DNA of 64,000 bases from an uncultured Rhodospirillaceae bacterium (GTDB lineage Bacteria; Pseudomonadota; Alphaproteobacteria; GCA-2731375), in assembly GCA_964344935.1 (NCBI GenBank), contig CAYFPL010000001.1, forward strand, positions 1,276,303-1,340,302, given 5' to 3'. Below the pieces are notes generated by a model. It was not told the DNA's origin, searched no databases, and saw only the letters and a program-made list of their open reading frames with translations. The translations under genes and the position numbers were made by a program. Shown here in pieces: positions 1,862 through 40,102 of the stretch. Numbering within the stretch: position 1 is the first letter of the stretch; each line of letters opens with the position of its first letter.

Positions 1862-1877
1862 CCTTGGTTTCCGCGGT

Positions 1878-7148: not shown

Positions 7149-7161
7149 TATCCCACCCTCG

Positions 7162-9177: not shown

Positions 9178-9179
9178 AC

Positions 9180-11448: not shown

Positions 11449-11451
11449 GGC

Positions 11452-11760
11452 TTAGTCCTGCCCTTCCAGGACTTCCAAGGCCACACGGCCCGCATTCACT
11501 GCCGTGGGCCAGCCGGAATAAAACGCCAGATGGGTTATCAAGCCGAACAGTTCTTCCTTTGTGACGCCGTTGTCGATGGCGCGGGCCATATGCCCTTTCA
11601 GTTCCTCCGTTCGGTAAAGGGCGATGAGCACCGCCACGGTGGCCAGGCTGCGGTCCCGTTTTGAAAGTTCGGGCTGCTCCCAGACATCGCCGAACAGCAC
11701 CTCGTCACGCAAATTCCCCAATTGCGGGATGAGATCGTAGGGTGTTTTCTTCTCTGCCAT
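11452..11760 (-). CDS. Carboxymuconolactone decarboxylase (CMD/AhpD-like) family protein
   Basis: 102-aa protein with a CMD-family core. RBS AAGGA upstream. 3-nt gap to the downstream dehydrogenase gene. Confidence 0.75.
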   Translation of the reverse strand: MAEKKTPYDLIPQLGNLRDEVLFGDVWEQPELSKRDRSLATVAVLIALYRTEELKGHMARAIDNGVTKEELFGLITHLAFYSGWPTAVNAGRVALEVLEGQD

Positions 11761-11782
11761 AGTTCCGATCCTTTTTCGTTGT

Positions 11783-12589: not shown

Positions 12590-12652
12590 GCGCTTTCCTC
12601 CCTTGTCGGCTTGGCATTTAGTGTAACATCCTTCGCGAGCAGGGGGTCGAAT

Positions 12653-17800: not shown

Positions 17801-18356
17801 AAAGGTGGCGCGGCACATATCGGAGGAGGAGTTCAATTCCTACCTTATGTATCCGGATGTCTTCACTGCCTATGCCGCGCACCGACGCGAGTACGGGCCC
17901 GTTGACGTGTTGCCGACCCCCACCTTCTTTTATGGCATGCAACCGGACGAAGAAGTCACCGTGGATCTGGAAGCCGGCAAGAGCCTGGTGATCCGTCTGC
18001 AGGCCATGGGCGAGGTCGATGAAGATGGCTATGTGCGTGTCTTCTTTGAACTAAACGGACAGCCCCGCACAATTCGCATCGTCAACCGGCAGGTCGCCGC
18101 CAATGTGGAACGACATCCCCAGGCAGATGACAACAACCCCAACCACGTCCCCGCACCGATGCCGGGCGTCGTCGGCACAATCGCCGTTAATACCGGTCAG
18201 GCCGTGGAGGTGGGAGATCTGTTGCTGAACATCGAAGCCATGAAAATGGAGACCGCGATCCGCGCCGCTCGGTCCGGGACCATCGCCGCCATCTCGGTGA
18301 AATCCGGCATGTCTGTGGACGCCAAGGACCTGCTGCTTGAGTACGCCGCCGACTAG
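14898..18356 (+). CDS. pyc: Pyruvate carboxylase
   Basis: 1152 aa. N-terminal biotin carboxylase domain (KIMVANRGEIAIRVLRA), a central carboxyltransferase domain, and a C-terminal biotinyl domain with the EAMKMET biotin-attachment motif. RBS AGGAGC. Confidence 0.95.
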   Translation: MIQKRKISKIMVANRGEIAIRVLRAANELGLGTVAVFAEEDKLALHRFKADEAYLIGQGLGAIRAYLSIEEMIRVAKQARADAIHPGYGFLSENPDFAEACAEAGIVFVGPTPEIMRRLGNKVSARRVAVAAGTPVMPATGPLPDDMDEVRSLATEVGYPVMLKASWGGGGRGMRVIESESELEAEVESGRREAQAAFGNGEVYLEKLVRRARHVEVQLLGDHHGNVVHLFERDCSVQRRNQKVVERAPAPFLDDQRREELCQAALRLARESGYVNAGTAEFLMDADSGEFYFIEVNPRIQVEHTVTEEVTGIDIVKAQIRIAGGAKIGDVAASGVPAQDDIRLRGHALQCRVTTEDPEENFVPDYGRITAYRGANGFGIRLDGGTAYSGAVITRHYDSLLEKVTAWAPTPEEAIARMDRALREFRIRGVTTNLTFVEGLINHPKFRAAEYTTRFIDETPELFKLSHRRDRATRLLRFIANVTVNGNDEVAGRPEPNTDRTPLLPEHLTETPPEGTKQLLDRMGAEKFAAWMLAQDRLLLTDTTMRDAHQSLLATRMRSYDIVRAADAYAHNLPELFSLECWGGATFDVAMRFLNECPWERLRRIRARVPNILLQMLLRGANGVGYTTYPDNVVRTFVQQAADSGMDLFRVFDSLNWVENMRVAMDAVLESGKLLEGAICYTGDMLDPDRDKYDLNYYTTMARELAAAGSHIIGIKDMAGLARPDAIAKLVKVLKEETGLPVHFHTHDTSGIAAASVLAAAEAGVDAADLSMDSLSGLTSQPNLGSVAGALRGGGRDPGLDAGQIRAFSDYWEGVRAQYAAFESDLRFGASEVYLHEMPGGQFTNLKEQARALGLEERWHEVARAYAEVNDMLGDIVKVTPSSKMVGDMALSMVSADLSRADVENPDKEIAFPESVRSYFRGELGQPPGGFPETLQAKVLAGETALTERPGANLPPADLVALRREAEKKVARHISEEEFNSYLMYPDVFTAYAAHRREYGPVDVLPTPTFFYGMQPDEEVTVDLEAGKSLVIRLQAMGEVDEDGYVRVFFELNGQPRTIRIVNRQVAANVERHPQADDNNPNHVPAPMPGVVGTIAVNTGQAVEVGDLLLNIEAMKMETAIRAARSGTIAAISVKSGMSVDAKDLLLEYAAD

Positions 18357-19141
18357 CCGCCAAATCTTGGCTGACGCTTTTCGAGGAAGGCACGCATGCC
18401 TTCGCGGGCATCGTCGGAAAGGATCAATCCGGTTTGCGTTTGGCGCTCGAATGCAAGGGCATCACCCAGGCTGGCGCCCATAGCGCCATAGACTCCCCGC
18501 TTGATCGCCGCCAGGGCCTGCGGCGGTCCGGCAGCCAGGCGTTCGGCGAAGGCGTGGACTTGTTCACCGAAGCCCTCAAGCGGCCAGAGCTGGTTTAGAA
18601 GGCCAAGGCGATAGGCCTCCTCCGCCCCGATGCGGTCGCCGGTCATCATCAGCTCCATGGCTTTGGCTGCGCCCACCAATCGGGTCAGCGTTTCGAAGCC
18701 GCCCCAGTCGGGGACCAAACCGATCTTGACAAAGCTCTCCGAAAACAGGGTCTTCTCGCAGCCCAGGCGTATGTCGCAGGCCAGGGCCAGGTTCATGCCG
18801 CCGCCAGCGGCGGGGCCGTTAACGGCGGCGATTACGGGCTGGGGCAATGTACGCAACAGCCCAACCACCTTTTCCACCGTATCTAGATGGCTTTCCAGAA
18901 CGCTGGCATCGTTATCCTGCTGCCATTGCGCCATGGCCGCGATATCGCCGCCGGCGCAAAAGGCCCGGCCGGCACCGGTGATAACGACACACCGCACACC
19001 TGGGTCATCGGCACAGGCGGTCAGTTTGTCCAAGAGAATATCCCGCATATCCCCAGCCAGGGCGTTCATGGCCTCGGGCCGGTTCAGGGTGATGGTGGCA
19101 ACATGATTACTCACCTCGAACAGCAATTTTTCCACGCTCAT
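18353..19141 (-). CDS. Enoyl-CoA hydratase/isomerase (crotonase) family protein
   Basis: 262 aa with a crotonase-fold signature (VITGAGRAFCAGGDI). RBS GGGGAG. Convergent with pyc, with a 4-bp overlap. Confidence 0.85.
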   Translation of the reverse strand: MSVEKLLFEVSNHVATITLNRPEAMNALAGDMRDILLDKLTACADDPGVRCVVITGAGRAFCAGGDIAAMAQWQQDNDASVLESHLDTVEKVVGLLRTLPQPVIAAVNGPAAGGGMNLALACDIRLGCEKTLFSESFVKIGLVPDWGGFETLTRLVGAAKAMELMMTGDRIGAEEAYRLGLLNQLWPLEGFGEQVHAFAERLAAGPPQALAAIKRGVYGAMGASLGDALAFERQTQTGLILSDDAREGMRAFLEKRQPRFGG

Positions 19142-19281
19142 GGATGTCTCCCCACTCTTGATTTATTGTCCCTTACACAAAATGCGGTCATTGGTCCGGG
19201 CCCTGCACCCGTCGCTTTGACTTGCGGCCCCTGATAGAGATGCCCATCATATAAGCCAAACAACAAGCACGAGGAAACATC

Positions 19282-20997
19282 ATGCTAGATTTGATCATCC
19301 GCAACGCCCGGATCGCAGATGGTCTGGGCAGTCCTTTGATCGAAGGCGATCTGGCGGTCAAGGACGGCCGCGTCACAGATGTGGGCCAGGTCACAGGCGA
19401 CAGTGCAGCCGAGTTCGATGCGAACGGTGACGTCCTTGCCCCCGGCGTGATCGATCTGCATACCCATTACGATGCGCAACTGACCTGGGACCAGACCGCC
19501 TCGCCGGCCGGCGCCCTGGGCGTGACAACGGTGGTTGTGGGAAATTGCGGTTTCGGTATCGCCCCGGCACCGGCCGCCCACCGGGAGGCCATCCTGGCCA
19601 ACCTGGCAGAGGTCGAGGGGATGTCTCTCACATCCCTGAAGGCCGGTGTGGATACGAACTACGAAAGTTTCGGCGACTATCTCGATCTGCTGAAACAAAA
19701 GGGCGTCTATCCCAATGTTGCGGTACTGGCCTCGCACACCGTGTTCCGCACAGTGGTTATGGGCGATGAAAGTTCCGAGCGGGCCGCAACAGACGCGGAG
19801 CTGGCGCAGATTACGGCGCTCTTCCGCGAGGCCATGGATGCGGGCGCCATCGGCCTGGGTTCATCCAGCAATGAGAACCACCGGGGCGCGGGCGGCATCC
19901 CGATCGCCTCGCGGCTGGCCGATGATGATGAATTTCGCAGCCTAGCCGCGGTCATGGCGGACTATGACCACGGCGTCTTCATGGCCACCTTTGGCGAGAA
20001 GCACGGCATTCCCTTCCTCGAGGAATTGACCCGCATAAGCGGGCGGCCCGGCTTCTATGCGCCTATGTTCCATTTCGCTCACCAACCGGACCGCGCCAGC
20101 AATATCATGGCCCAGGCGGAAGATGCCCGGCACCGCGGCCTGCCGGTCTACACCCAGGGCTCCTGCCAGCCCTTGAGCCTAAGTTTCACTCTGGACAAGG
20201 CCTATATCCTGAAAGCCATGGAACACTGGCCGGCCACGGAGGATCATGGCGAATTGCGGCAGATCTTTTCCGATCCCGGCTTCCGCGATGCCTTCCGCCA
20301 GACTTTGAAGTCCGATGACAGCCAGCATGTCTTCAAGGGCCGCTGGGACTGGGTGCCTATCACCATAACCGGGCTGGACAAGAACAAGGATCTGGAAGGA
20401 CGCACCGTGGCGGAGGTCGCCGCCGAACGGGGGGTGGATCCCTTTGATCTGTTCCTGGACCTTGGCCTGGAAGAGGATTTCGCCACCAAATACACCTTCT
20501 ATCTCTTGAATATGGAAGAAGACGGCGTCGCCCCCCTGTTGGTCAACGATGGCACCCTGATTAGTCTGTCAGACGCCGGCGCGCACAATTCGCTATTGTG
20601 CGATGCAGGCTACGCCATGCACTTGTTCGGACATTGGACCCGTGAAAAGGGCCTGTTCGACCTGCCCACAGCCATCCGCAAGGTCACTTCCGACCCGGCG
20701 GATACATACGGCATCATCGACCGGGGACAACTGACGCCAGGGGCCTGGGCCGACATGATCCTGTTCGATCCCGAGACCATCGGGATCACAAAGATGGAAC
20801 GGCATTTCGACCTGCCGGCCGGTGGTGAGAGATTGTTGCGCCGGGCGCCGGGACTGAAGGGCACCTGGGTCAACGGCGTGCAGGTGTTCGACGGCACGCA
20901 TTATCTGGATGTGCCCGCGCCGGGAGAGGTGCTGACGAAGTTTGACAGCGGCCTTCCGACACTTGGCATGGGACCGGCCCAGGCCGCGGCCGAATAG
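19282..20997 (+). CDS. Amidohydrolase of the N-acyl-D-amino-acid deacylase (D-aminoacylase) family
   Basis: N-terminal RNARIADG...APGVIDLHTHYD metal-binding motif typical of D-aminoacylase-type amidohydrolases. RBS GAGGAAA. Confidence 0.8.
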   Translation: MLDLIIRNARIADGLGSPLIEGDLAVKDGRVTDVGQVTGDSAAEFDANGDVLAPGVIDLHTHYDAQLTWDQTASPAGALGVTTVVVGNCGFGIAPAPAAHREAILANLAEVEGMSLTSLKAGVDTNYESFGDYLDLLKQKGVYPNVAVLASHTVFRTVVMGDESSERAATDAELAQITALFREAMDAGAIGLGSSSNENHRGAGGIPIASRLADDDEFRSLAAVMADYDHGVFMATFGEKHGIPFLEELTRISGRPGFYAPMFHFAHQPDRASNIMAQAEDARHRGLPVYTQGSCQPLSLSFTLDKAYILKAMEHWPATEDHGELRQIFSDPGFRDAFRQTLKSDDSQHVFKGRWDWVPITITGLDKNKDLEGRTVAEVAAERGVDPFDLFLDLGLEEDFATKYTFYLLNMEEDGVAPLLVNDGTLISLSDAGAHNSLLCDAGYAMHLFGHWTREKGLFDLPTAIRKVTSDPADTYGIIDRGQLTPGAWADMILFDPETIGITKMERHFDLPAGGERLLRRAPGLKGTWVNGVQVFDGTHYLDVPAPGEVLTKFDSGLPTLGMGPAQAAAE

Positions 20998-21016
20998 ACG
21001 CAAGGACTTACGGCAA

Positions 21017-21886
21017 ATGCTGGCTGGAAAATGGGGCGTCTGGTACGCCCCCAACAGGATGCCCCGGGAAGAGATTACGCGCCTGGCGCAGGAGACCGAG
21101 GCAGGCGGCTATGACACTTTATGGTATCCGGAGGCCATGGCCTATGAGGCAATGGCCATGGGCGGATACCTATTGGGCCGGACGACGAAGCTGAACGTGG
21201 CGACCGGCATCGCCAATATCTATGTGCGCGACCCTTCGGCGGCCATACAGGGTCACAACACCCTGAACAGCCTGCACGATGGACGGTTCATTCTCGGCCT
21301 TGGCGTCTCGCACATTCCCATCGTGGAAGGGGCCCGCGGTCACGCCTATGGCAAACCGGTCACCACCATGCGCGCCTATCTGGCTGCCATGGAAGCAGCG
21401 CCTGTGCAGATAAAGGCGGATAAACGCCAGGTCGTCCTGGCGGCACTTGGGCCGAATATGCTGGCCCTTTCGGCGGAAATGGCGGATGGCGCCCTTCCCT
21501 ATAACGTCACGCCGGAACATACCCAACGGGCGCGGGAAATACTTAGCCCCGGCAAGGCCCTGTGCGTGGAACAAAAGATCTGTCTGACGGACGATGCCGC
21601 CAAAGCCCGCGATGTCGCCGCCGCGCAGCTGCAAATGTATCTGGGCCTACCTAACTACCGAAACTGCTGGCTGAGCCTGGGATTTTCGGAGGATGAACTG
21701 TCAGGCCGGGGCAGCGACCGGTTCCTCGACGCCATGGTCGCCTGGGGCAACGAAGACACCATCCGCGCCCGGCTGCAGGAACATTTCGATGCCGGCGCCG
21801 ATCACGTGGCTATCCAGCCCTTCGACCCCGACGGCGGCAACTCGCCCGATTGGAAGGCCCTGGCCACGTTCGCGCCGGGCGGCTAA
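21017..21886 (+). CDS. LLM-class (luciferase-like) flavin/F420-dependent oxidoreductase
   Basis: Luciferase-like monooxygenase family similarity. Start ATG 21017 chosen; the track ORF begins earlier, at 20942, and would overlap the upstream gene by 56 nt. Confidence 0.7.
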   Translation: MLAGKWGVWYAPNRMPREEITRLAQETEAGGYDTLWYPEAMAYEAMAMGGYLLGRTTKLNVATGIANIYVRDPSAAIQGHNTLNSLHDGRFILGLGVSHIPIVEGARGHAYGKPVTTMRAYLAAMEAAPVQIKADKRQVVLAALGPNMLALSAEMADGALPYNVTPEHTQRAREILSPGKALCVEQKICLTDDAAKARDVAAAQLQMYLGLPNYRNCWLSLGFSEDELSGRGSDRFLDAMVAWGNEDTIRARLQEHFDAGADHVAIQPFDPDGGNSPDWKALATFAPGG

Positions 21887-21920
21887 TAATAGCCAATCTG
21901 AAAATCAGGGAGAGACCGCC

Positions 21921-22238
21921 ATGAGCGTTGTAAGTGTCGTCGCTGTCATAACCACCAAACCGGGCAAGCGTGACGAGGTCCTGGCCGCGTTCCGAAACAA
22001 CCTTGCCGCCGTACGGGCCGAGGACGGCTGCATCGAATATGCCCCTCATATCGATACGGAAGGCATGGGCAGTTTTCAGACCGAATTCGGTCCCGACACA
22101 TTTGTTGTCATCGAGAAGTGGGAAAGCAAGGAAGCACTGGGCGCCCATGCCGTGGCACCGCACATGAAGGCCTACGCGGAAAAAGTGGGCGATCTTTTGG
22201 AAAGCCGCGTTATCCACATTCTTTCGTCCGCCGAATAG
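21921..22238 (+). CDS. Antibiotic-biosynthesis-monooxygenase (ABM) domain protein / putative quinol monooxygenase
   Basis: 105-aa ferredoxin-like ABM fold (VVAVITTKPGKRDEV...VVIEKWESKEALGAH). RBS AGGGAGAG. Lies 10 nt upstream of pcaH. Confidence 0.7.
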   Translation: MSVVSVVAVITTKPGKRDEVLAAFRNNLAAVRAEDGCIEYAPHIDTEGMGSFQTEFGPDTFVVIEKWESKEALGAHAVAPHMKAYAEKVGDLLESRVIHILSSAE

Positions 22239-22248
22239 GCGCAGTGCC

Positions 22249-22956
22249 ATGGCTGAGCCCGGGAATTACGCACCACGGGATTGGCAGAGCCATCCCCCCT
22301 ATCTCGCACCGGAGTACAAATCAACGCCGCTGCGGGCACCGACCAAGCCCCTGGTGATCCTGCCCCAGAACCTGTCTGAACTAACCGGGCCGGTCTATGG
22401 CCAGGACGCGGTCGGACCGCTGGATCACGACCTGACCAAGTCGGCCGCGAAGAACGGTGAACCAAATGGCGAGCGCATTATCGTAGCGGGCAAGATGACG
22501 GACGAAGACGGGCGCCCGGTGCCCAATATCCTGCTCGAGGTTTGGCAGCCGAACGCGGCGGGACGTTACAACCATGCCGACGACCAGCACGATGCCCCCA
22601 TCGATCCGAACTTCCTGGGCGCGGGCCGCTGTGTGACCGATGACGAGGGCCGATATCGTTTCATCACCATCAAGCCGGGCGCCTATCCTTGGGGCAATCA
22701 CTTCAACGCCTGGCGGCCCAACCATATCCATTTTTCCCTGTTCGGCCCTTCGATCCTGACTAGGTTGATCACCCAGATGTATTTCCCCGGCGATCCGCTG
22801 CTGGAGCTGGATCCCATCTTCAATGCCACGCCGGCCGCCACCCGTGACCTGTTGGTTTCGAAGTTGTCCATTGAGCTGTCCGAGCCGGAATGGGCGCTGG
22901 GTTATGAATTCAACATCTGTCTGCGCGGCCGCGTCGCCACGCCCATGGAGACGTGA
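22249..22956 (+). CDS. pcaH: Protocatechuate 3,4-dioxygenase beta subunit
   Basis: Strong PcaH signatures (ERIIVAGKMTDEDGRPVPN, AWRPNHIHFSLFGPS, QMYFPGDPL). Confidence 0.9.
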   Translation: MAEPGNYAPRDWQSHPPYLAPEYKSTPLRAPTKPLVILPQNLSELTGPVYGQDAVGPLDHDLTKSAAKNGEPNGERIIVAGKMTDEDGRPVPNILLEVWQPNAAGRYNHADDQHDAPIDPNFLGAGRCVTDDEGRYRFITIKPGAYPWGNHFNAWRPNHIHFSLFGPSILTRLITQMYFPGDPLLELDPIFNATPAATRDLLVSKLSIELSEPEWALGYEFNICLRGRVATPMET

Positions 22957-22958
22957 GC

Positions 22959-23534
22959 ATGGCGCCGAAACAGACCCCCTCGCAGACGGTGGGCCCATAC
23001 TTCGCCTATGGCCTGACGCCAGAGCAATACGGCTACGACTACAAACAGCTCGCCGGCAACAGCCTGAGGGAGGACGGCGCCGAGCCGATCATCATCCGGG
23101 GCCAGGTATTCGATGGCAATGGCGATACCGTGCGGGACGCTGTGTTGGAACTGTGGCAGGCCGACAGCCAGGGCCGCTACGCCCATCCCGCCGACCAAAG
23201 GAGCACCAACACCGGTTTTGGCGGTTTCGCCCGGGTCGGAACCGGAACCCGGGATGGCAATTTCTACGAGTTCGAGACGGTCAAGCCGGGCGCCATCGGC
23301 GACGGCCAGGCGCCCCATATCACCGTGGTCCTGTTCATGCGGGGTTTGTTGAACCACGTCTATACCCGCATCTACTTTTCTGACGAAGCAGCAGCCAACA
23401 GCGACGACCCTGTCCTGAACCTGGTTGATGAAGACCGCCGCGGCAGCCTGATCGCCCATCGAGAAGACGGCAATACCTACCGTTTCGACATCCACATGCA
23501 GGGTGACAGGGAAACCGTGTTTTTCGACGCCTGA
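22959..23534 (+). CDS. pcaG: Protocatechuate 3,4-dioxygenase alpha subunit
   Basis: PcaG-like (TPSQTVGPYF, APHITVVLFMRGL, ends ETVFFDA). Start 3 nt after the pcaH stop. Confidence 0.9.
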   Translation: MAPKQTPSQTVGPYFAYGLTPEQYGYDYKQLAGNSLREDGAEPIIIRGQVFDGNGDTVRDAVLELWQADSQGRYAHPADQRSTNTGFGGFARVGTGTRDGNFYEFETVKPGAIGDGQAPHITVVLFMRGLLNHVYTRIYFSDEAAANSDDPVLNLVDEDRRGSLIAHREDGNTYRFDIHMQGDRETVFFDA

Positions 23535-23539
23535 GGCCG

Positions 23540-24829
23540 ATGATACTGGATGCTTACCTGCAGGACCCTGATACGGAGGCTTTGATCTCCGATGCGGCAC
23601 TTGTGGCCGCCATGCTGGAGGTGGAAGCGTCCCTGGCCCGCGTACAGGGTCGCCTGGGCATCATTCCGGCGGAGGCTGCGGATCGCATCGTCGAAACGGC
23701 CACCAGCCTGGACGTAGATATCCCCGCATTGGGCCTGGCCACGGTCAAGGACGGCGTCCCCATAACGGACTTTGTCGCACAATTGCGTGCTGGTGTGGGC
23801 GAGGCTCATGGCGGCTATGTGCATTGGGGCGCCACCTCCCAGGACATTGTCGACACCGCCTTGGTTCTGCTGTTTCGGGTCGCTTTGGACCTGCTTGCGG
23901 GCCGTCTCGACGAACTGATCGGGGTCTGGGGCGAATTGGCCGACCGCCACCGCGCCACCGTCATGGCCGCCCGCACCCGCAACCAACAGGCCGTACCCAC
24001 CACATTTGGCCTGAAGGCAGCGGGCTGGATTGCGCCTCTGTTGCGGCATAGACGCCGCTTGGAAGCCCTTCAGAAGGATGGCCTGATGCTGCAGTTCGGC
24101 GGCGCCGGCGGCACCCTGGCGGCATTGGGTGACCGGGGCCCGGCCGTTGTGGAGGCCCTGGCCGCTGAACTGGAGCTGCCGTTCCCCATCATGCCCTGGC
24201 ACAATCAGCGCGACGGCTTTATGGACCTGGCCAACTGGCTATCCATGACCAGTGGCAGCTTGGGCAAGGCAGCGGATGATATCCTGCGAATGGCGCAGTC
24301 GGAGGTGGGCGAGGTCCGCATCGAAGGCGCAGGCGGTTCCTCCACCATGCCGCAAAAGGCCAACCCGGTTCTGGCGGAGGCCGTGGTCGCACTGTCCCGC
24401 CACAATGTGGGGCTGGCTGCCAATATGCAGCACGCCGCCTTACATGCTCACGAACGGGATGGCGTAGCCTGGACCATGGAATGGCTGGCCCTGCCGCAAA
24501 TGGTCCGCACCAGCGCCGCCGCTTTGCGCCATTCCCTGGATATCGCCCGCAACCTGCATGTGGACGCGGAGCGTATGCAGTCAAACTGCGGCCCGTCCTT
24601 GCTGGCGGAGGCCGCCGTCTTCGCCTTGAGCGAACACATGACGAAAGCAGAGGCCCAGGCATTGGTGAAAGCGGCCTTGACGGAGGCAACAGGGACGCGG
24701 GATATGTTCCAAATCCTGGCCGGCCGCACCACGGCACCGGTTGATTGGGAGAAACTGCGCGACCCAAGAACTTATCTCGGCGCCGCGGACGTCTTCATCG
24801 ACAGAATCTTGGAGGAGATCAAATCATGA
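23540..24829 (+). CDS. pcaB: 3-carboxy-cis,cis-muconate cycloisomerase (fumarate-lyase superfamily)
   Basis: Class II fumarase/aspartase family signature GSSTMPQKANP. Size and position directly after pcaHG fit PcaB. Confidence 0.85.
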   Translation: MILDAYLQDPDTEALISDAALVAAMLEVEASLARVQGRLGIIPAEAADRIVETATSLDVDIPALGLATVKDGVPITDFVAQLRAGVGEAHGGYVHWGATSQDIVDTALVLLFRVALDLLAGRLDELIGVWGELADRHRATVMAARTRNQQAVPTTFGLKAAGWIAPLLRHRRRLEALQKDGLMLQFGGAGGTLAALGDRGPAVVEALAAELELPFPIMPWHNQRDGFMDLANWLSMTSGSLGKAADDILRMAQSEVGEVRIEGAGGSSTMPQKANPVLAEAVVALSRHNVGLAANMQHAALHAHERDGVAWTMEWLALPQMVRTSAAALRHSLDIARNLHVDAERMQSNCGPSLLAEAAVFALSEHMTKAEAQALVKAALTEATGTRDMFQILAGRTTAPVDWEKLRDPRTYLGAADVFIDRILEEIKS

Positions 24830-25764
24830 GCATGCGGCTTGGATACCTGCTGCCCACCCGCGAACGGGTCATGCGTGGCCAGCCGGAGGCGGCACCGATC
24901 TTGGATCTGGCCAGCCGGGCAGAAGATCTGGGCTTCGATTCCGTCTGGATCGGCGACTCCGTCCTGGCCCGGCCCCGCCACGACCCCATCACCATGCTCG
25001 CGGCCATCGCAGCGCGGACCAACAAAGTGGAACTGGGCACGGCAGTACTGTTGCCTGCGCTGCGCAATCCCGTCCTGCTGGCGCATCAGTTTGCCACCCT
25101 CGACCAGATCAGCCAGGGCCGGGTGATCCTGGGCGTGGGCATCGCGGGTGATGTGCCGAATATCAGGGCCGAGTTCGCGTCCGTCGGGGTGCCGTTCGAA
25201 AAACGGGTGGGACGCATGATGGAAGGCCTGCGCCTGGCCAAGGCACTTTGGCGCGGGGAGCCGGTTGACTGGGACGGTCGCTGGCCGGTGCAACAGGGCG
25301 TGCTGGCGCCCACACCGCATCGTCCCGGCGGTCCACCCATTTGGGGCGGCGGTTCCGCACCGGCTGGCTTGATCCGTGCCGGCAAGAATTTCGACGGCTG
25401 GTTCCCCACCGGCCCCGATGCCGCTGGCTGGGCCGAGCAATGGCAAACAGTCAAGGATGCGGCCAGGGACGCAGGCCGCAATCCAGCGGACCTGACAGGC
25501 GCCCTGTATCTGACCATGGTCATCGATGACGACGCCGCAAAGGCGCAAGACCAGATTAATACCTACCTGGAAGAATATTATGGGGTCGCTGCCTCGGTTC
25601 TGACCAAGTGGCAGGCCTGTTTCGCCGGCCCAGCGGAGGCCGCTGCCGAATGGCTGAAGGGTTATGCCGATGCCGGCGCCAGCCACCTGGTGCTGCGCTT
25701 CGCGGGCGACAACGAACGGCACATGGATATTATCGCCGGCGTCCGCGAGAGCCTCGGTTGGTAA
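24826..25764 (+). CDS. LLM-class flavin-dependent oxidoreductase (luciferase-like)
   Basis: Luciferase-like family similarity. ATG 24826 overlaps the pcaB stop (ATGA). GGAGGAG RBS. Confidence 0.8.
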   Translation: MSMRLGYLLPTRERVMRGQPEAAPILDLASRAEDLGFDSVWIGDSVLARPRHDPITMLAAIAARTNKVELGTAVLLPALRNPVLLAHQFATLDQISQGRVILGVGIAGDVPNIRAEFASVGVPFEKRVGRMMEGLRLAKALWRGEPVDWDGRWPVQQGVLAPTPHRPGGPPIWGGGSAPAGLIRAGKNFDGWFPTGPDAAGWAEQWQTVKDAARDAGRNPADLTGALYLTMVIDDDAAKAQDQINTYLEEYYGVAASVLTKWQACFAGPAEAAAEWLKGYADAGASHLVLRFAGDNERHMDIIAGVRESLGW

Positions 25765-26151
25765 CTATTTGACGCCTTTCCAATAAGTATCCTTACGGTA
25801 AATCCGGCCGTCGCGGACCGGGTAAACGTCAACCACGTTAAGGTGATAATCCTTGCCGTTCTCGTCGGTGCCCTTTGTAGTGAACATCTGCAGGATCACA
25901 TCCCCTGCGGGACGCTCCACCATGTTCTCATAGCTGACATTGGTCCAATTAGCCTGGCGCCAGGCGATCTCTTCCATCACCGCGTCGATGCCTTTCAACA
26001 CTTTCCCGGTGGGACTGTCGCTGCCAGGCTCGCCATAGTGCATGTGCCATTCGAAATCATCGGTGGTGGCAGCGGCCAAACCTTCGCGGTCGGCCTTGGC
26101 ATAGGCCCGCCGAAACTGCTTCATCAGGTCCAGCATCTCTTCATTGTTCAT
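25765..26151 (-). CDS. NTF2-like / SnoaL-like small protein
   Basis: 128-aa ketosteroid-isomerase-like fold protein. Overlaps the puuE stop by 4 nt. It is the last gene of the purine-catabolism operon. Confidence 0.6.
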   Translation of the reverse strand: MNNEEMLDLMKQFRRAYAKADREGLAAATTDDFEWHMHYGEPGSDSPTGKVLKGIDAVMEEIAWRQANWTNVSYENMVERPAGDVILQMFTTKGTDENGKDYHLNVVDVYPVRDGRIYRKDTYWKGVK

Positions 26152-27065
26152 TTTTCAACTCCTTTCGCTGGATGATGGCTTCGCCAATGACGGGCGATAT
26201 CGATGCGCCGTGCGAACCATACGCCGTCATGGGCTTGAGCGTGGTCGATGAACCGGGCCAAGGCGGCGATACGGCCAGGCCGCCCCACCAGGCGGCAATG
26301 CAGGCCAACTGACATCATGCGCGGCGTCCTTTCGCCTTCGGCCAGCAAGACGTCAAATGCATCCCGCAAATAATTGAAGAACTGATCGCCCGCGTTGAAG
26401 CCCTGGGGCGTGGCGAAGCGCATGTCGTTGGCATCCAGGGTATATGGCACCACCAAGTGGTCCCTGTCGCCGACCTTGGTCCAGAACGGCAGATCGTCGC
26501 TGTAATCGTCGGCGTCATAGAGGAAGCCGCCTTCTTCCGCTACCAAGGCCCGGGTATTTTCGCTGGTGCGACCCGTATACCAGCCCAGGGGCCGCTCGCC
26601 CGTCAGGCCCTTGATGATCTCAATGGCTTTGTGAAGGTGTTCGCGCTCCAAATCCAGGGGTACATCACGATAATCGATCCAACGGTAGCCGTGGCTGCAG
26701 ATCTCGTGTCCTTTGGCCATCGCGGCCTCCGCCACCGCCGGATTGCGGGCTAAAGCCATCGCAACGGCAAAGATCGTCAATGGCACTTCGCGGCTGTTGA
26801 ATAGATCCAACAGGCGCCATATCCCCACCCGGCTGCCGTACTCGTAAATGCTTTCCATATTCATATGGCGCTGCCCCGCCCAGGGCTGCGCGCCAACGAT
26901 TTCGGAGAGGAAGGCTTCCGAGGCCGCGTCGCCATGCAGAATGTTGTTTTCACCACCCTCTTCGTAGTTGATCACAAACTGCACCGCCAGTTTGGCACCG
27001 TCGGGCCAGTCAGCCTGCGGCGGCGTGGGGCCATAGCCGACCATATCCCTGGGATAATCACTCAT
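26148..27065 (-). CDS. puuE: Allantoinase, polysaccharide-deacetylase type
   Basis: 305 aa polysaccharide-deacetylase family with PuuE-like features (HGYRWIDY). Sits inside the purine-catabolic operon. ATGA overlap with guaD. Confidence 0.8.
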   Translation of the reverse strand: MSDYPRDMVGYGPTPPQADWPDGAKLAVQFVINYEEGGENNILHGDAASEAFLSEIVGAQPWAGQRHMNMESIYEYGSRVGIWRLLDLFNSREVPLTIFAVAMALARNPAVAEAAMAKGHEICSHGYRWIDYRDVPLDLEREHLHKAIEIIKGLTGERPLGWYTGRTSENTRALVAEEGGFLYDADDYSDDLPFWTKVGDRDHLVVPYTLDANDMRFATPQGFNAGDQFFNYLRDAFDVLLAEGERTPRMMSVGLHCRLVGRPGRIAALARFIDHAQAHDGVWFARRIDIARHWRSHHPAKGVEK

Positions 27066-28351
27066 TGCCTCTCCCCTTTGATATAGACGGCGCCGACGGC
27101 CCGGTCGTCGCCCAACATCATTAGAGCGAACAGGGTATCCTCAAGAGTCTCGGACAACTCGTTGCGGGCCGCCAGAACCTCCGTCGCCTCCGGGTCCAGA
27201 ACCACGATGTCGCCAAAGGCGCCGGACTGCAGCGTCCCGATCTCGCCCTCAAGGCCCAGTGCCCTGGCATTCCCAAGCGTGGCCAAGTAGAAGCCATCGA
27301 AGGCGGTCAGTTTGCGCCCTTTCAACATAGCCACCTTGTAGGCTTCGCCTAGGGTTTGCAGCATGGAATAGCTTGTACCCCCTGCGACATCCGTCGCCAC
27401 ACCCACTTTCACCGGCCGTTCCGGCGCGCGCAGGTGGCCAATGTCAAACAGTCCGGAGCCGAGGAAATTGTTCGAGGTCGGGCAATGCACCACCGATGCG
27501 CCGGCATCGTGCAGGGCCTGGCATTCCCGCTCGGAAAGGTGGATGCCATGGGCGAAGACCGAGCAAGGGCCCAGAAGGCCGAAACGGTCGTATACGTCCG
27601 CATAGTCCTGCGACCAGGGAAACTGTCGCCTAACGAATTCGATTTCGCCGGCGCTTTCGGAAATGTGCGTATGCATCAAACAATCCGGATGGGCACGGTA
27701 CAATTCGCCGGCCTTTTGCATCTGCTCTTCCGTAGAGGTAACGGCGAAACGCACTGTAATTGCATAACGCAGACGGTCAGTGCCGTGCCATTTGCCGATC
27801 AGGTCGGCGCTATCCATCGCACTGCTCTCCGCCGTATCTAGGACGGCCTCCGGGGCATTGCGGTCCATCATGGTCTTGCCGGTGATCAGGGCCATGCCGC
27901 GTTTCTGCGCCGCCTGGAACAGACAATCGGCGGCCCCCTTGTGGACCGAGGAAAACGCCAGGGCGGAAGTGGTGCCGTGCGCGACCAACTTGTCCAGAAA
28001 CGGTTCCGCTGCGGCGGTGGCGAAGGCTTCGTCGCCATATTGCGCCTCTTCGTGGAAAGCGAAGCGGTTGAGCCATTCCAGCAGGTCCTTGGCCGGCGCG
28101 GCGATCATACGGTGCTGCGGGAAATGTACATGGGCATCGATGAAGCCCGGCATGACGATCTTTCTGGAATGGTCATGCACCTTGATCCCGGTATGATCCG
28201 CGGGCAGTTCTGCAAACGCGCCCGACCAGGCGATGCGGCCCCCTTCCCCGATGACCACGGCACCGTCATCGTGGGTGATGATGCCGCCCCCAAGGCGCGG
28301 GTCGTCCGCGAAACTGAGGGTGCGGCCGCGGATTACGCATGAATTGGTCAT
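27062..28351 (-). CDS. guaD: Guanine deaminase (amidohydrolase superfamily)
   Basis: PGFIDAHVHFPQ metal-binding motif with guanine-deaminase-like length and context. Start at ATG 28351 (MTNSCVIRG). Confidence 0.8.
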   Translation of the reverse strand: MTNSCVIRGRTLSFADDPRLGGGIITHDDGAVVIGEGGRIAWSGAFAELPADHTGIKVHDHSRKIVMPGFIDAHVHFPQHRMIAAPAKDLLEWLNRFAFHEEAQYGDEAFATAAAEPFLDKLVAHGTTSALAFSSVHKGAADCLFQAAQKRGMALITGKTMMDRNAPEAVLDTAESSAMDSADLIGKWHGTDRLRYAITVRFAVTSTEEQMQKAGELYRAHPDCLMHTHISESAGEIEFVRRQFPWSQDYADVYDRFGLLGPCSVFAHGIHLSERECQALHDAGASVVHCPTSNNFLGSGLFDIGHLRAPERPVKVGVATDVAGGTSYSMLQTLGEAYKVAMLKGRKLTAFDGFYLATLGNARALGLEGEIGTLQSGAFGDIVVLDPEATEVLAARNELSETLEDTLFALMMLGDDRAVGAVYIKGERQ

Positions 28352-28860
28352 GCCGATACCCGATCCTCGATGCGAAAGCGGAAGATGCGGCAAACATTGT
28401 CCAGGGCATTGGCGAATTCCGTCTCCCGGTCAGCGCCGATGCGTTCCTCGAATGATGCCAGGATCATCTCCTTGGTGGCGCCTTTGACGGCGAAGATGAA
28501 GGGAAAGTCGAACTTGGCCTTGTAGCGGTCATTGAGGTCCGTAAAACGCCGGAATTCTTCCGCGGTCAGCCTGTCCAATCCGGCACCCGCCTGTTCGCTT
28601 CGCGAGTCTTCTGTCAGTTCGCCGGCCACGGCCGCTTTGCCCGCCAGGTCGGGATGGGCCCGCAAGACGGCCAGTTGCCGGTCCCGGTCTGCCGCCCACA
28701 GAGCGCCGCCGAATTTCTCGATCAGGTCCTCGCGGTCAGTGAACGGCCGTGTGGCGGCCGCCTGCTCCGCGACCCATGGCGAATGTTCCGCCACATCGCC
28801 AAAGGCATCCACGAAGGCGGGCGCCGACATCCGGTTCACTTCCGCAAGGGCATAGGCCAT
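28348..28860 (-). CDS. uraD: OHCU decarboxylase (2-oxo-4-hydroxy-4-carboxy-5-ureidoimidazoline decarboxylase)
   Basis: OHCU decarboxylase family similarity (FVDAFGDVAEHSPWVAE ... ends RIFRFR-like). Start ATG 28860, or alternatively 28830. Confidence 0.75.
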   Translation of the reverse strand: MAYALAEVNRMSAPAFVDAFGDVAEHSPWVAEQAAATRPFTDREDLIEKFGGALWAADRDRQLAVLRAHPDLAGKAAVAGELTEDSRSEQAGAGLDRLTAEEFRRFTDLNDRYKAKFDFPFIFAVKGATKEMILASFEERIGADRETEFANALDNVCRIFRFRIEDRVSA

Positions 28861-28868
28861 GAGGCACT

Positions 28869-30047
28869 CTATTGGCTGTCGATCCAGGCGCCCAGTTTCA
28901 GGCGCTCTTCGTCGGTCATGCCGGTTTCGTTGCCCAAAGGCATGGCACGGGTCTGTACTGTGAACTGCATCACCTGCTGGCCGTGCCGCGCCAACTGATC
29001 CGTGTTCTCCAGCAGCACGTTCTTGGGCGGCGCGTCGATGCCTTCGTATTTCGGCTTGGCGGCATGGCACATGGTGCAGTGCTTCTGCACGATCTGCATC
29101 ACCTCCACATCCGAGACATCGTAGGCCTCGAAGTCGCGTTGTTGCGGCGAGGTCAGATAGATGGCGCCAATCAGGGCGACCAGGATTACCGGCAATGCGG
29201 CGCGGTACTTGGCGAACGGTTCACCAACCTCGTGGCTGACCAGAGCATGGCGCAGACAGGCGCCGCCCACGATGACGAAGGCCACGATCAGCCAGGCCTG
29301 GGGATGCCCCGATAGCATGGGATAATGGCCCGAGACCATCATCACTAGGACAGGCAGGGTCAGATAGGTGTTGTGGACCGAACGCTGTTTGCCGATCTCA
29401 CCGTATTTGGCATCAGGCTCCTCGCCGGCCAATAGGGCGGCGGTGACCTTCTTCTGGTTGGGAATGATGATGGCAAACACATTCGCCGCCATGATGGTGC
29501 CGATGAAGGCGCCTACGTGGATCAGGGCGGTGCGCCCCGAGAACACCTGGGTATAGAAATAGGCCGCCGCCATTACCCAAATGAAGCCGATCACCGCCAA
29601 CAGTGTGGTATTGCGGCCGATGGGACTACGGCACAAACCGTCATAAACGAACCAGCCCACGGCCATTGAGACGATCGAGATGGATATGGCCTGCCACGGC
29701 TCGAGCGACATAACGGATGGATCGATCATCCAGGCCCCGGCATCGAAATAGAACTGCACCACCATCAACAGGAAACCGGTCAGCCAGGTTAGGTAGGCCT
29801 CCCACTTGAACCAGACCAGATCCCCGGGCAATTCCTTGGGCGCAACCGTGTACTTTTCCACATGATAGAAGCCGCCGCCATGCACCTCCCACGCAGTGCC
29901 CATCACACCCTCTTTCATCTGCGCCCGTTTCTTGAGCGAAAGATCCAGGGCAATGAAATAGAAGGAGGTGCCGATCCAGCCGATACCGGCGATCATATGC
30001 GCCCAGCGGATCAGCAGGTTGGCCCAGTCGGCGGCGAAGGCGAGCAT
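28869..30047 (-). CDS. puuD: Membrane-bound urate hydroxylase with C-terminal cytochrome c domain
   Basis: Multi-TM N-terminal domain plus a C-terminal CTMCHA (CxxCH) heme motif, the architecture of PuuD-type urate oxidases. Start ATG 30047 after GGAGGG. Confidence 0.8.
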   Translation of the reverse strand: MLAFAADWANLLIRWAHMIAGIGWIGTSFYFIALDLSLKKRAQMKEGVMGTAWEVHGGGFYHVEKYTVAPKELPGDLVWFKWEAYLTWLTGFLLMVVQFYFDAGAWMIDPSVMSLEPWQAISISIVSMAVGWFVYDGLCRSPIGRNTTLLAVIGFIWVMAAAYFYTQVFSGRTALIHVGAFIGTIMAANVFAIIIPNQKKVTAALLAGEEPDAKYGEIGKQRSVHNTYLTLPVLVMMVSGHYPMLSGHPQAWLIVAFVIVGGACLRHALVSHEVGEPFAKYRAALPVILVALIGAIYLTSPQQRDFEAYDVSDVEVMQIVQKHCTMCHAAKPKYEGIDAPPKNVLLENTDQLARHGQQVMQFTVQTRAMPLGNETGMTDEERLKLGAWIDSQ

Positions 30048-30113
30048 GGGAGATCCCTCCACGGCGTCACGCCGGCCCAACCCAAAGGCCAGGCCGGCAC
30101 AACATCGGGACGC

Positions 30114-31184
30114 TTACTTCGGCAGCTTGCCGTCGACGCCTTTGACGTACCAGTTCATGCCCGCCAAGGTGCCATCATCAATGACCTTGCCGGCTTCCAG
30201 GAACAGACTGCCGTCCTGCTTGTACAAAGGTCCGGTAAAGGGATGCAGCTTGCCGGATGTGATCGCCGCTTCCGTCTTCTTGGCCATCTCGGCGACATCC
30301 GCCGGCATATTGGTATAGGCGGCCATCTCCACCGTGCCATCGGACAAGCCGTCCCAGGCATCGGAGGATTTCCAGGTCCCATCCAAGACCATCTTGGTGC
30401 GGCGCACATAGTAAGGTGCCCAGTTATCTACGATGGACGTCAGTTGCGCTTTCGGCGCGAACTTGATCATGTCCGAGGCCTGACCAAATCCCATGGCGCC
30501 CTTTTCGGCCGCGATCTGCAAGGGCGCCGTGCTGTCGGTGTGCTGGGTGATGATGTCGGCACCCTGGCCGATCAGCACTTTCGCGGCATCCGCTTCCTTG
30601 CCCGGATCGAACCAGGAGTTAACCCACACAACCTTCAACTTGTAGTCAGGATTGATGGTCTGGGCCCCCAGCAGGAACGCGTTGATACCCATCACCACTT
30701 CCGGAATCGGGAACGAGGCGATATAGCCAGCAACGCCTGACTTCGACATCTTGGCCGCGATCTGACCGATGATATAGCGGCCTTCATAGAAACGGGCGTT
30801 GTAGGTGGCAACGTTACTGGCCCGCTTGTAGCCGGTGGCATGTTCGAACTTCACCTTGGGGAAGCGTTTCGCCACCTTGATGGTCGGGTCCATGAAACCG
30901 AACGAGGTGGTGAAAATCAGGCCGGCGCCCTGGCGTGCCAGGCGGGTGATGGCCCGTTCCGCATCGGGCCCTTCGGCCACTTTCTCGACGAACATGGTCT
31001 CTACCTTGTCGCCCAGTTCCTTTTCGATGGCCAGGCGGCCTTGATCATGCTGGTAGGTCCAGCCGTGGTCGCCGACGGGGCCGACGTAGACGAAGCCGAC
31101 CTTCAATTTGTCGGCGGCGGATGCGGCGCCCATGGCGAAGACCATCGCCAAGGACAACGCGATCGAACCGATGAGTTTTTTCAC
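30114..31184 (-). CDS. BMP-family (basic membrane protein/PnrA-like) ABC transporter substrate-binding protein, likely nucleoside/purine-binding
   Basis: Signal peptide (KKLIGSIALSLAMVFAMGAASA). The Bmp family typically binds nucleosides. GTG start at 31184 is preceded by AAGGAG; the longer ATG start is at 31205. Confidence 0.8.
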   Translation of the reverse strand: MKKLIGSIALSLAMVFAMGAASAADKLKVGFVYVGPVGDHGWTYQHDQGRLAIEKELGDKVETMFVEKVAEGPDAERAITRLARQGAGLIFTTSFGFMDPTIKVAKRFPKVKFEHATGYKRASNVATYNARFYEGRYIIGQIAAKMSKSGVAGYIASFPIPEVVMGINAFLLGAQTINPDYKLKVVWVNSWFDPGKEADAAKVLIGQGADIITQHTDSTAPLQIAAEKGAMGFGQASDMIKFAPKAQLTSIVDNWAPYYVRRTKMVLDGTWKSSDAWDGLSDGTVEMAAYTNMPADVAEMAKKTEAAITSGKLHPFTGPLYKQDGSLFLEAGKVIDDGTLAGMNWYVKGVDGKLPK

Positions 31185-31281
31185 TGTTTGCTCCTTTTGC
31201 CTCACAAGTTTCGTAACGTTTCGCGGTGCTTGTTCTCAGGCCGCCAATGCCGTCCGCATAGCATTGGCGGCTGTTCTTGCC

Positions 31282-32202
31282 CTACCTCTCGGGCGCGAAT
31301 GGTTGGCCGATACAGGCCGGGGTGTTGACCTTGGTCAGCGTCTTGTTGCCGGAAATGATAATCAACGCGACGATGGTGACAAGATAGGGCAGCGACGAGA
31401 GCAGCTGCGAGGGGATGTCCACCCCCAGCGCCTGTACGTACAGCCCCATGATCCAGACCGTGCCGAACAAATAGGCGCCGATCAGGACCCGTTTCGGCAG
31501 CCAGGTGGAGAACACCACCAGCGCCAACGCAATCCAACCGCGCCCAGAGCTCATATTCTCGATCCATTGCGGCGTATAGGCCAGGGAGAGATAGGCCCCC
31601 GCCAGGCCGGAACAGGCACCGCCGAAGGCGATACAGCCGTAACGAACGCGGATCACGTTGTAGCCCAGTGCATGGGCCGAATGATGGTTGCCGCCCACCG
31701 CGGTGATGATCAGGCCTAGGCGGGTGCGGAACAACACATAGGCCACCCCGCCGGTAATGATCAGCGAACCGTAAACCAGGATGTCGTGGCCGAAGATCAC
31801 CGGCCCGATGAAGGGGATTTCGGTCAGAAATGGAATGTTCAAGGCCTCCAGCTTGACGCCAGGCAGGCCGGTGAAACTTTCCCCGATCATGCCCGAGAGG
31901 CCCAACCCCAAGAGCGTCAATGACAGGCCGGTTGCGACTTGGGAGGTCATCAGGGTCTGGGTCAGGAAGGCAAACAAAAGGGACATCCCCACCCCGGCCA
32001 CAAGGCCCGCACCGACACCCAGCATGGCGGAGCCGGAAGTATAGGCGGCGGCGAAACCGCAGACCGCGCCCATGATCATCATACCTTCCACGCCCAGGTT
32101 CAAAACGCCCGAACGTTCCGTCACCAGTTCGCCGATCGCCGCCAGCAGCAACGGCGTCGAGGCGGTGATGATGGTCAGAATGACGGCTTCGAGTGCACCC
32201 AT
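31282..32202 (-). CDS. ABC transporter permease (BMP-type system)
   Basis: 306-aa multi-TM permease. The overlapping 485-aa ORF (31202-32659) is a spurious alternative frame. Confidence 0.8.
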   Translation of the reverse strand: MGALEAVILTIITASTPLLLAAIGELVTERSGVLNLGVEGMMIMGAVCGFAAAYTSGSAMLGVGAGLVAGVGMSLLFAFLTQTLMTSQVATGLSLTLLGLGLSGMIGESFTGLPGVKLEALNIPFLTEIPFIGPVIFGHDILVYGSLIITGGVAYVLFRTRLGLIITAVGGNHHSAHALGYNVIRVRYGCIAFGGACSGLAGAYLSLAYTPQWIENMSSGRGWIALALVVFSTWLPKRVLIGAYLFGTVWIMGLYVQALGVDIPSQLLSSLPYLVTIVALIIISGNKTLTKVNTPACIGQPFAPER

Positions 32203-32211
32203 GGCCGCCTC

Positions 32212-35824: not shown

Positions 35825-35827
35825 GGC

Positions 35828-39635: not shown

Positions 39636-39637
39636 GA

Positions 39638-39991: not shown

Positions 39992-40102
39992 TTGTCCGGT
40001 TCCACCCTGTTGTCCGCCGTTGCCCGGCTTATTCCTTGCGTTTCCACAACTATCAACCAATCGACATTATGGAAAAAGAACTAAATCGTCGTACTACGAC
40101 TG

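Follow-up and report, generated by a model that had tools for sequence, protein, structure and literature searches.

A conserved variant of the protocatechuate operon with amidohydrolase, luciferase-like oxidoreductase and ABM genes in uncultured marine Alphaproteobacteria

Protocatechuate is a hub that takes lignin-, polyphenol- and phthalate-derived carbon into central metabolism, and its marine routes are poorly mapped. We analyzed a stretch of 64,000 nucleotides (nt) from a contig of an uncultured Rhodospirillaceae bacterium, referred to here as the window, and focused on seven packed plus-strand genes at positions 19282-25764 (Table 1). These encode a D-aminoacylase-family amidohydrolase (AMH), a luciferase-like oxidoreductase (LLM1), a YgiN-like ABM protein, the protocatechuate 3,4-dioxygenase subunits PcaH and PcaG, the cycloisomerase PcaB, and a second luciferase-like oxidoreductase (LLM2). 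A preliminary description of this DNA, made from its letters and open reading frames (ORFs) alone, had proposed these identities and had regarded the arrangement as a non-canonical protocatechuate operon; Pfam and NCBIfam matches recovered all seven genes at the positions and on the strand that it had given. The operon belongs to an uncultured marine clade that has been sampled in numerous waters, and it links a canonical ring-cleavage trio to four function-unassigned enzymes. We show below that it is a conserved variant of the known protocatechuate pathway and not a new kind of system, and we tentatively propose that it feeds an additional class of aromatic acids into that pathway.

The genes are separated, in order, by 19, 34, 10, 2, 5 and -4 nt, the last value reflecting an ATGA in which the stop of pcaB overlaps the start of LLM2; thus the tight, co-directional layout described earlier holds, with gaps from -4 to 34 nt. 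Gene starts were picked by ribosome-binding context, and the chosen starts match the protein lengths seen in relatives (571, 289, 102-105, 235, 194-206, 429-437 and 312 residues), with an alternative GTG start for pcaG at 22953 that would overlap pcaH by 4 nt. The ends of the operon are set by a divergent gene for an enoyl-CoA hydratase (ECH) on the left and by a convergent SnoaL-like gene on the right, and it was hence found that pcaCDIJF do not continue the same transcription unit immediately outside the block. The ECH protein passed no specific NCBIfam threshold, and its gene adjoins the first operon gene in every locus of the clade that extends that far. A generic promoter and terminator scan, the counts of which were overall at chance level, found no terminator-like site on the plus strand within the operon. 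The 140-nt region between ECH and AMH contains a promoter-like motif 31 nt ahead of the first ATG, which was not called by the generic sigma-70 scan. In seven loci, among them L006, L007, L009, L011, L013 and L001 (L-numbers denote comparison loci), an element of the form CTTGCRG...GCCATCATG is conserved 5' of the gene that opens the operon; it is a putative promoter. Judged by this organization, the genes from AMH to LLM2 are predicted to constitute a single operon that is read from one promoter upstream of AMH.

Table 1. Features of the operon and of its surroundings in the window, with model scores given against the respective cut-offs
Feature	Positions	Strand	Length, model matches and remarks
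AMH	19282-20997	+	571 aa; Pfam Amidohydro_3/Amidohydro_1
LLM1	21017-21886	+	289 aa; TIGR03620 (MSMEG_4141) subfamily, 292.7 bits vs cut-off 219.8
ABM	21921-22238	+	105 aa, YgiN-like; PF03992 E = 1.6e-18
pcaH, protocatechuate 3,4-dioxygenase subunit	22249-22956	+	TIGR02422 333.4 vs 296.4
pcaG, protocatechuate 3,4-dioxygenase alpha subunit	22959-23534	+	TIGR02423 237.9 vs 126.25
pcaB, 3-carboxy-cis,cis-muconate cycloisomerase	23540-24829	+	TIGR02426 364.8 vs 355.75
LLM2	24826-25764	+	312 aa; PF00296 E = 2e-64; TIGR03619 167.5 vs 166.9
Promoter-like motif	19217-19250	+	In ECH/AMH intergenic region; CTTGCG 19221-19226, 18-nt spacer, CATCAT 19245-19250
ECH, enoyl-CoA hydratase/isomerase family	18353-19141	-	ECH_1 E = 1e-63; divergent from operon
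SnoaL-like	25765-26151	-	128 aa; convergent with LLM2
CMD-family protein	11452-11760	-	102 aa; TIGR02425 66.4 bits vs 155.7; membership in system uncertain
MBL-fold lactonase-like	11783-12589	-	268 aa; Lactamase_B; membership in system uncertain

Examination of the three central proteins against solved structures revealed that their diagnostic residues are largely intact. PcaH matches the Pseudomonas putida chain 2pcd_M (E = 1.3e-72), and in the alignment to 2pcd it keeps the Tyr, Tyr, His, His iron ligands together with Arg457, Tyr324 and Arg330, Arg450 being replaced by Gly (we take this numbering to be that of the P. putida structures). PcaG matches 1eo2_A (E = 1.6e-44) and retains both the N-terminal TPSQT.GPY stretch and the Arg of the F(A/M)RG motif (Arg133), which is replaced by His in the mutants of the Acinetobacter 2bux series. 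Both subunits lie comfortably above the protocatechuate equivalog thresholds. PcaB recovers the solved cycloisomerases 1q5n and 1re5 with E = 2e-73 and 7e-70, and all three of its lyase signature regions are conserved, region 2 in the form of an RTRxQQA variant that is common to the pcaB genes following pcaHG in L138, L097 and L106, with a related RTRMQVA in L098. The margin of PcaB over TIGR02426 is narrow, its score against NF006554 falls below threshold (374.9 vs 595), and it is the least conserved of the operon's proteins among relatives, at 55-68% identity versus 75-90% for its neighbors. A changed or relaxed function of PcaB was considered on account of this low conservation and rejected, because the same gradient of PcaH > PcaG > PcaB is also seen in ordinary pca loci and the signature motifs are intact. 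The clear PcaH, PcaG and PcaB signatures reported in the preliminary description are thereby borne out by equivalog thresholds, iron ligands, substrate-binding residues and lyase motifs alike. From these features pcaHGB is predicted to be an ordinary functional trio, in which PcaHG would convert protocatechuate to 3-carboxy-cis,cis-muconate and PcaB would convert the latter to 4-carboxymuconolactone.

The orthologue-grade PcaH, PcaG and PcaB and the H-G-B order are those of the protocatechuate branch of the beta-ketoadipate pathway, as typified by pcaHG plus pcaBDC of P. putida, pcaDCHGB of Agrobacterium and pcaQDCHGB of Roseobacter. Unlike in those operons, neither pcaC, pcaD, pcaIJ and pcaF nor a gene for a PcaQ/PcaR-type regulator is present in the operon or the window, and four unrelated genes, namely AMH, ABM and the two for luciferase-like oxidoreductases, share the transcription unit instead. 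Pfam scans of the large ORFs, together with NCBIfam searches for a subset, detected no canonical PcaC, PcaD, PcaIJ or PcaF in the 64 kb, and no PcaD model matched either the alpha/beta hydrolase encoded at 52497-53489 or the DLH-family protein at 61379-62152. Likewise, no regulator of the PcaQ (LysR) or PcaR (IclR) type was found; the stretch from 10.5 to 42.5 kb is free of regulator genes of any kind, and the closest one is an RpiR-family gene at 42555-43430.

The absence of pcaC, pcaD and pcaIJF that had been reported earlier therefore stands, with the qualification that an ORF for a sub-threshold CMD-family protein and one for an MBL-fold protein, both of which had been overlooked, lie 7.5 kb upstream of the operon on the opposite strand. 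Compared with the pcaC and pcaL genes found next to pcaH elsewhere, the CMD-family ORF lacks the N-terminal ~30 residues, and the MBL-fold protein shows weak, below-threshold matches to N-acylhomoserine lactone lactonases and to 4-pyridoxolactonase. The CMD-family gene is syntenic in L001, L015 and L041, being kept in L001 even though that locus is without pcaHGB, and the MBL-fold gene is syntenic in L001, L009, L015 and L041. In the window the two form part of a set at 10516-13624 that comprises minus-strand genes for a 3-hydroxyisobutyrate-dehydrogenase-like protein and the CMD and MBL proteins and a plus-strand gene for an ApbA/PanE-like reductase; the set is conserved in the last four loci. 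In relatives it sits directly beside ECH, from which it is separated in the window by the insertion of genes for an enolase-superfamily dehydratase and pyruvate carboxylase. We downgraded this CMD, MBL-lactonase and dehydrogenase trio as a candidate for the missing PcaC and PcaD, given that the CMD protein is N-terminally short and below the PcaC threshold, and that the trio persists in L001, a locus devoid of pcaHGB, and does not lie adjacent in L089 and L090. By its score and length the 102-residue CMD protein appears to be a paralogue, as distinct from a canonical PcaC. The genome presumably encodes the enzymes for decarboxylation, lactone hydrolysis and CoA activation elsewhere.

To place the block in a wider context we used the window proteins and precomputed Pfam tables to compare 85 LLM2-anchored loci, 90 after the addition of L086-L090. 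The close relatives of LLM2, by which the source organism is an alphaproteobacterium, come from metagenome-assembled genomes (MAGs) labelled Rhodospirillaceae or Alphaproteobacteria, the isolate names of which suggest Saanich Inlet, ocean samples from 3000-4000 m and the Caspian Sea, among others. The order of a divergent ECH followed by AMH-LLM1-ABM-pcaH-pcaG-pcaB-LLM2 recurs in L006, L007, L011 and L014, with partial copies in L008 and L012, and the same order with a flavin reductase gene between pcaB and LLM2 is found in L009, L013/L086, L087, L089 and L090. The block is accordingly present in at least ten related marine alphaproteobacterial MAG loci at 60-90% protein identity, and pcaB and LLM2 are translationally coupled in six. 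At least three different right flanks and at least three different left flanks surround it, the right flank being a purine cluster in some loci and a set of Glyoxalase, thiamine pyrophosphate-enzyme and CoA-ligase genes in others; as both flanks differ among loci, we consider the block a conserved unit. This is the outcome of the conservation check that the preliminary description had suggested for the LLM-ABM-pcaHGB-LLM arrangement. Shorter versions also exist: L015 and L041 have only the divergent ECH and ABM-pcaHGB-LLM2, with no AMH, LLM1 or reductase. In a more distant alphaproteobacterial MAG (L048) pcaH, pcaG, pcaB, a MetE-like gene and LLM2 are abutting ORFs, with PcaH at 72% and LLM2 at 55% identity to the window proteins; ABM, which is present in the marine-clade variants reaching that position, was not detected in L048. 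The LLM2 of L048 is more distant than LLM2 copies unlinked to pca genes (63-70%), and for this reason the locus hints at a second, independent recruitment of an LLM2-family gene to pcaHGB. A PcaH-anchored scan of metagenome contigs (80 loci, 58-75% identity) found no LLM, ABM or amidohydrolase neighbor, and in 25 of these loci a CMD gene (pcaC or pcaL) lies beside pcaH or pcaB. Since none of the 80 has these partners, the partnership appears to be clade-specific and atypical for pca loci, which agrees with the non-canonical status originally assigned to the arrangement.

Turning to the accessory enzymes, AMH contains an Amidohydro_3 domain (E = 1.9e-25), and its best solved relatives are D-aminoacylase (1m7j, 135 bits) and N-acyl-D-glutamate deacylase (3gip). 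AMH can be aligned with these enzymes (D-aminoacylase being typified by that of Alcaligenes faecalis DA1) in its N- and C-terminal parts, and it keeps the metal-site motifs HxH, GNCG with its Cys, and SD(A)G(A)H with the C-terminal Asp, which align to 1m7j. Unlike them, AMH is ~90 residues longer, has a diverged central region in which the two central His ligands fall in a non-alignable stretch, and belongs to a very conserved family of its own: among the 120 matches listed, identities range from 65 to 88% across several phyla, with Entotheonella, Stellaceae and gammaproteobacterial records among those that are named. N-benzoyl amino acids are among the substrates of D-aminoacylases. Three distant genomes with AMH homologues (L171-L173) are 6.5-9 Mb in size, and the neighbors of the gene differ each time, including genes for Abhydrolase_3, SDR, CoA-transferase III and hydantoinase proteins and an LLM. 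L172 has two AMH paralogues 7 kb apart, the first with a faint CMD-family match just upstream and a CoA-transferase III gene directly after it.

Among proteins of solved structure, the ABM protein is closest to E. coli YgiN, a quinol monooxygenase (1tuv/1r6y, E = 1.4e-17, nearly full length), although its genomic partners here are pcaH and the LLM genes, unlike ygiN, whose partner in E. coli is mdaB. For LLM1 the solved relatives are confined to weak matches to the F420-dependent Mer, and the pass of LLM2 against TIGR03619 is marginal. An actinobacterial origin, suggested by the matches to 'F420' LLM families, was rejected, as all close relatives are alphaproteobacterial MAGs. A component overlooked in the preliminary description is a PF01613 flavin reductase of 222 residues, encoded directly upstream of LLM2 in six loci (L001, L009, L013/L086, L087, L089 and L090) and situated between pcaB and LLM2 in those that have the full cluster; no such gene occurs in the window. 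Genes for F420 biosynthesis (cofC/D/E/G/H, fbiC) were found neither in the window nor in the fetched loci. As orthologues of LLM2 have the reductase directly upstream, LLM2 may be a reduced-flavin-dependent oxygenase. Clustering of the ORFs around 81 LLM2 loci yielded no family common beyond close relatives, and a universal partner for the LLM2 family was accordingly rejected. A stand-alone MetE-like (Meth_synt_2) gene does recur near LLM2, lying between pcaB and LLM2 in L048 (8874-10004), convergent with LLM2 in L086 (10953-11990) and upstream in L001 (1897-3000); none was found in the window.

The combination of an ABM protein, a PF01613 reductase and a flavin monooxygenase is known from actinorhodin tailoring, where ActVA-Orf6, ActVB and ActVA-Orf5 carry out phenol-to-quinol/quinone oxygenation. 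The sister loci resemble such two-component flavin monooxygenase systems, both ActVA-Orf5/ActVB with ActVA-Orf6 and the NtaA/NtaB-type pairs of an LLM with a PF01613 protein, in having the reductase gene before LLM2 and ABM in the operon. They differ in that LLM2 is a short barrel (312 residues) nearer to Fgd and Mer than to SsuD and NtaA, and the window itself is without the reductase.

Taken together, the reading that we favor, and hold as a tentative one, is that of a clade-specific operon through which an aromatic acid, either amide-linked or hydroxylated, would enter protocatechuate ortho-cleavage, the lower pathway being encoded elsewhere. A funnelling route of this kind and an altered fate of carboxymuconolactone had both been raised in the preliminary description, the interpretation of which is supported in part by the present results. 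In the scheme favored here AMH would cleave an N-aroyl amide and so release an aromatic acid. LLM2, acting as an oxygenase with reduced flavin supplied by a reductase that would be dedicated in the sister genomes and encoded elsewhere in this one, would then hydroxylate or oxidize the ring to a catechol together with the YgiN-like ABM protein and LLM1. PcaHG would cleave the catechol, PcaB would lactonize the product, and the later steps would again be encoded elsewhere. Within the clade AMH never occurs without pcaHGB, but pcaHGB occurs without AMH (L015, L041 and L048), which is the pattern expected of a peripheral funnel enzyme; such presence and absence patterns across loci are suggestive only.

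Several observations weigh against this proposal. None of the four accessory enzymes has a characterized close relative: AMH lies below all NCBIfam thresholds (best 73 vs 340), ABM has no NCBIfam equivalog match, LLM1 passes the 'F420' subfamily TIGR03620, and the nearest solved relatives of LLM2 are the F420-dependent Fgd and Mer, ahead of the FMNH2-dependent monooxygenases. Homologues of AMH at 66-78% identity (L171-L173) reside in unrelated neighborhoods, with no aromatic-pathway link in any of the three distant genomes, and LLM2 homologues at 52-70% identity likewise lie in unrelated neighborhoods and have no recurrent partner outside close relatives. The conserving genomes are fairly close kin, so that shared ancestry explains part of the synteny. 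Further, LLM2 served as the query by which the loci were retrieved, which makes the statement that pcaHGB always occurs with LLM2 an ascertainment-biased one; the PcaH-anchored scan of relatives at no more than 75% identity is a control, and the bias in the LLM2 set remains. Finally, one relative (L001) has the divergent ECH and LLM1-ABM-flavin reductase-LLM2 and is devoid of AMH and pcaHGB, and a Stellaceae locus (L032) has ABM-LLM2 only.

These two loci also support a rather unlikely but substantial alternative, namely that the operon is a functionally unrelated mosaic, in which a pcaHGB cassette landed in a pre-existing LLM1-ABM-reductase-LLM2 operon beside an independent AMH. Its genes would be co-transcribed and serve different pathways, and standard pcaC/D/IJ/F genes at other sites of the genome would carry protocatechuate catabolism to completion. 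L001 has the proposed recipient operon and nothing else, L032 retains ABM-LLM2 alone, and the L015 and L041 variants complement them in lacking AMH, LLM1 and the reductase, such that the accessory genes behave as separable modules. The spread of the AMH and LLM2 families over unrelated contexts, the absence of these partners from the 80 other pcaH loci and the fully canonical nature of PcaHGB itself would all fit a mosaic. Against it, the composite order survived in at least ten genomes while both flanks were rearranged, the translational coupling of pcaB and LLM2 is kept in six loci, and L048 has a separate linkage of pcaHGB to an LLM2-family gene. Moreover, in neighbor-joining trees of LLM2 and ECH (calculated with no support values) L001 pairs with L089, which has the full cluster, inside the pcaHGB-bearing clade. 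Because of this placement, the simplest history would be a composite ancestor from which AMH and pcaHGB were both lost in the L001 lineage, by two deletions that are non-adjacent. The variants are also suggestive of a loss of AMH and LLM1 in the L015/L041 lineage and of more than one loss of the flavin reductase. Since L001 retains LLM2 and ABM despite having no pcaHGB, these two are likely to have a role that is independent of PcaHGB.

A further alternative, which we regard as improbable, is a different downstream fate of the PcaB product: LLM2 with ABM and/or LLM1 would act on that product or on 3-oxoadipate in place of PcaC and PcaD, with flavin- or F420-dependent butenolide reduction or a Baeyer-Villiger-type oxygenation as candidate reactions. 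LLM2 directly follows and overlaps pcaB, L048 likewise has an LLM2-family gene downstream of pcaB, and the LLMs resemble F420-type reductases. The lack of canonical pcaC and pcaD in the operon and the 64-kb window also fits this alternative, when compared with the adjacent pcaC/pcaL in 25 of the 80 other pcaH loci. However, LLM2, ABM and LLM1 are all retained in L001 without pcaHGB, LLM2 homologues elsewhere have no pca neighbors, the partner flavin reductase suggests an oxygenase and not a reductase, and pcaC and pcaD may lie elsewhere on the 1.6-Mb contig. No precedent was found in the literature, and we know of no LLM that acts after PcaB. Slightly less probable again is the stronger form of this idea, in which replacement of PcaC and PcaD by the LLM2-family enzyme with ABM and/or LLM1, through a reductive or Baeyer-Villiger-type route from 4-carboxymuconolactone or 3-oxoadipate, would amount to a new lower beta-ketoadipate branch.

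The least credible alternative, action of PcaHG and PcaB on a substituted catechol with AMH as a lactone hydrolase, draws on the 4-sulfocatechol pathway of Hydrogenophaga intermedia and Agrobacterium radiobacter S2, in which pcaHG- and pcaB-type genes (pcaH2G2, pcaB2) are reportedly clustered with those for an amidohydrolase-superfamily lactone hydrolase (sulfomuconolactone hydrolase) and maleylacetate reductase and, as here, lack pcaC and pcaD; the narrow threshold pass of PcaB and the Gly at Arg450 of PcaH would suit it, but it is very improbable because the pca core is canonical, with PcaH and PcaG comfortably over the protocatechuate models and the carboxylate-holding, protocatechuate-binding residues kept (Tyr324 beta, Arg133 alpha and the Thr-Pro-Ser-Gln-Thr loop), and further in that AMH is an upstream-encoded Amidohydro_3 protein of the D-aminoacylase type and not an Amidohydro_2 protein like the sulfomuconolactone and pyrone-dicarboxylate hydrolases, that the seven-gene block has no iron-type alcohol dehydrogenase/maleylacetate reductase gene, and that pcaHGB occurs without AMH in L015, L041 and L048.

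In literature searches on the gene combination, on the LLM subfamilies and on marine pca variants, we found the cluster nowhere described, nor any account of the function of the TIGR03619 and TIGR03620 LLM families. The loss of pca genes and their analogous substitution in marine alphaproteobacteria is the subject of a 2026 SAR116 preprint, which deals with canonical pcaGHBCD/fadA plus gctAB and mentions neither 'luciferase' nor 'amidohydrolase'. Were the peripheral funnel proposed here true, the operon would point to aromatic amides or hydroxy-aromatics as a so far unrecognized class of substrates within marine dissolved organic matter, and would offer a first functional handle on TIGR03619/TIGR03620-type LLMs outside actinobacteria. 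Should the accessory genes act after PcaB, a textbook pathway would gain a new lower branch, and should they be unrelated, the locus would be an instructive case of operon mosaicism.

To the left of the operon, pyruvate carboxylase and the enolase-superfamily dehydratase are encoded, along with a long array of minus-strand genes. To its right lies a large purine-catabolism region (26148-45308, mostly on the minus strand), which codes for a PuuE-type allantoinase (TIGR03212, 529 bits), a guanine-deaminase-like amidohydrolase, an OHCU decarboxylase and a PuuD-type membrane urate oxidase, as well as a Bmp-family ABC transporter, XdhC, XdhB, XdhA, two M20 peptidases, the RpiR regulator and adenine deaminase; no transthyretin-type 5-hydroxyisourate hydrolase was seen in it. 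The stop of the SnoaL-like gene abuts that of LLM2 (0 nt), and the gene overlaps puuE by 4 nt. It accompanies the purine cluster in L006, L007, L008 and L012, and for this reason we count it among the genes of that cluster and place it outside the pca operon. The A and B subunits of hydantoinase/oxoprolinase are encoded by three gene sets (152-5557 and 47844-51561), one of which runs into a minus-strand array at 5568-10472 encoding an acyl-CoA ligase, a 673-residue family III CoA-transferase and a 430-residue MaoC-like hydratase. One of the relatives discussed above, L015 (PBHT01000002.1), is labelled 'Acidobacteria bacterium' in its record, and the cluster on it is the alphaproteobacterial one, with proteins 70-90% identical to those of the window; its contig is probably mis-binned. 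Towards the right end of the window lie a plus-strand gene for an RPE65-family (carotenoid or lignostilbene-type) oxygenase (53534-54886) and, at 59005-61081, a third LLM gene (376 residues, minus strand) and a PhyH-family dioxygenase gene, the ORFs of which overlap head-to-head by 35 nt; these genes add to the oxygenase-rich character of the region.

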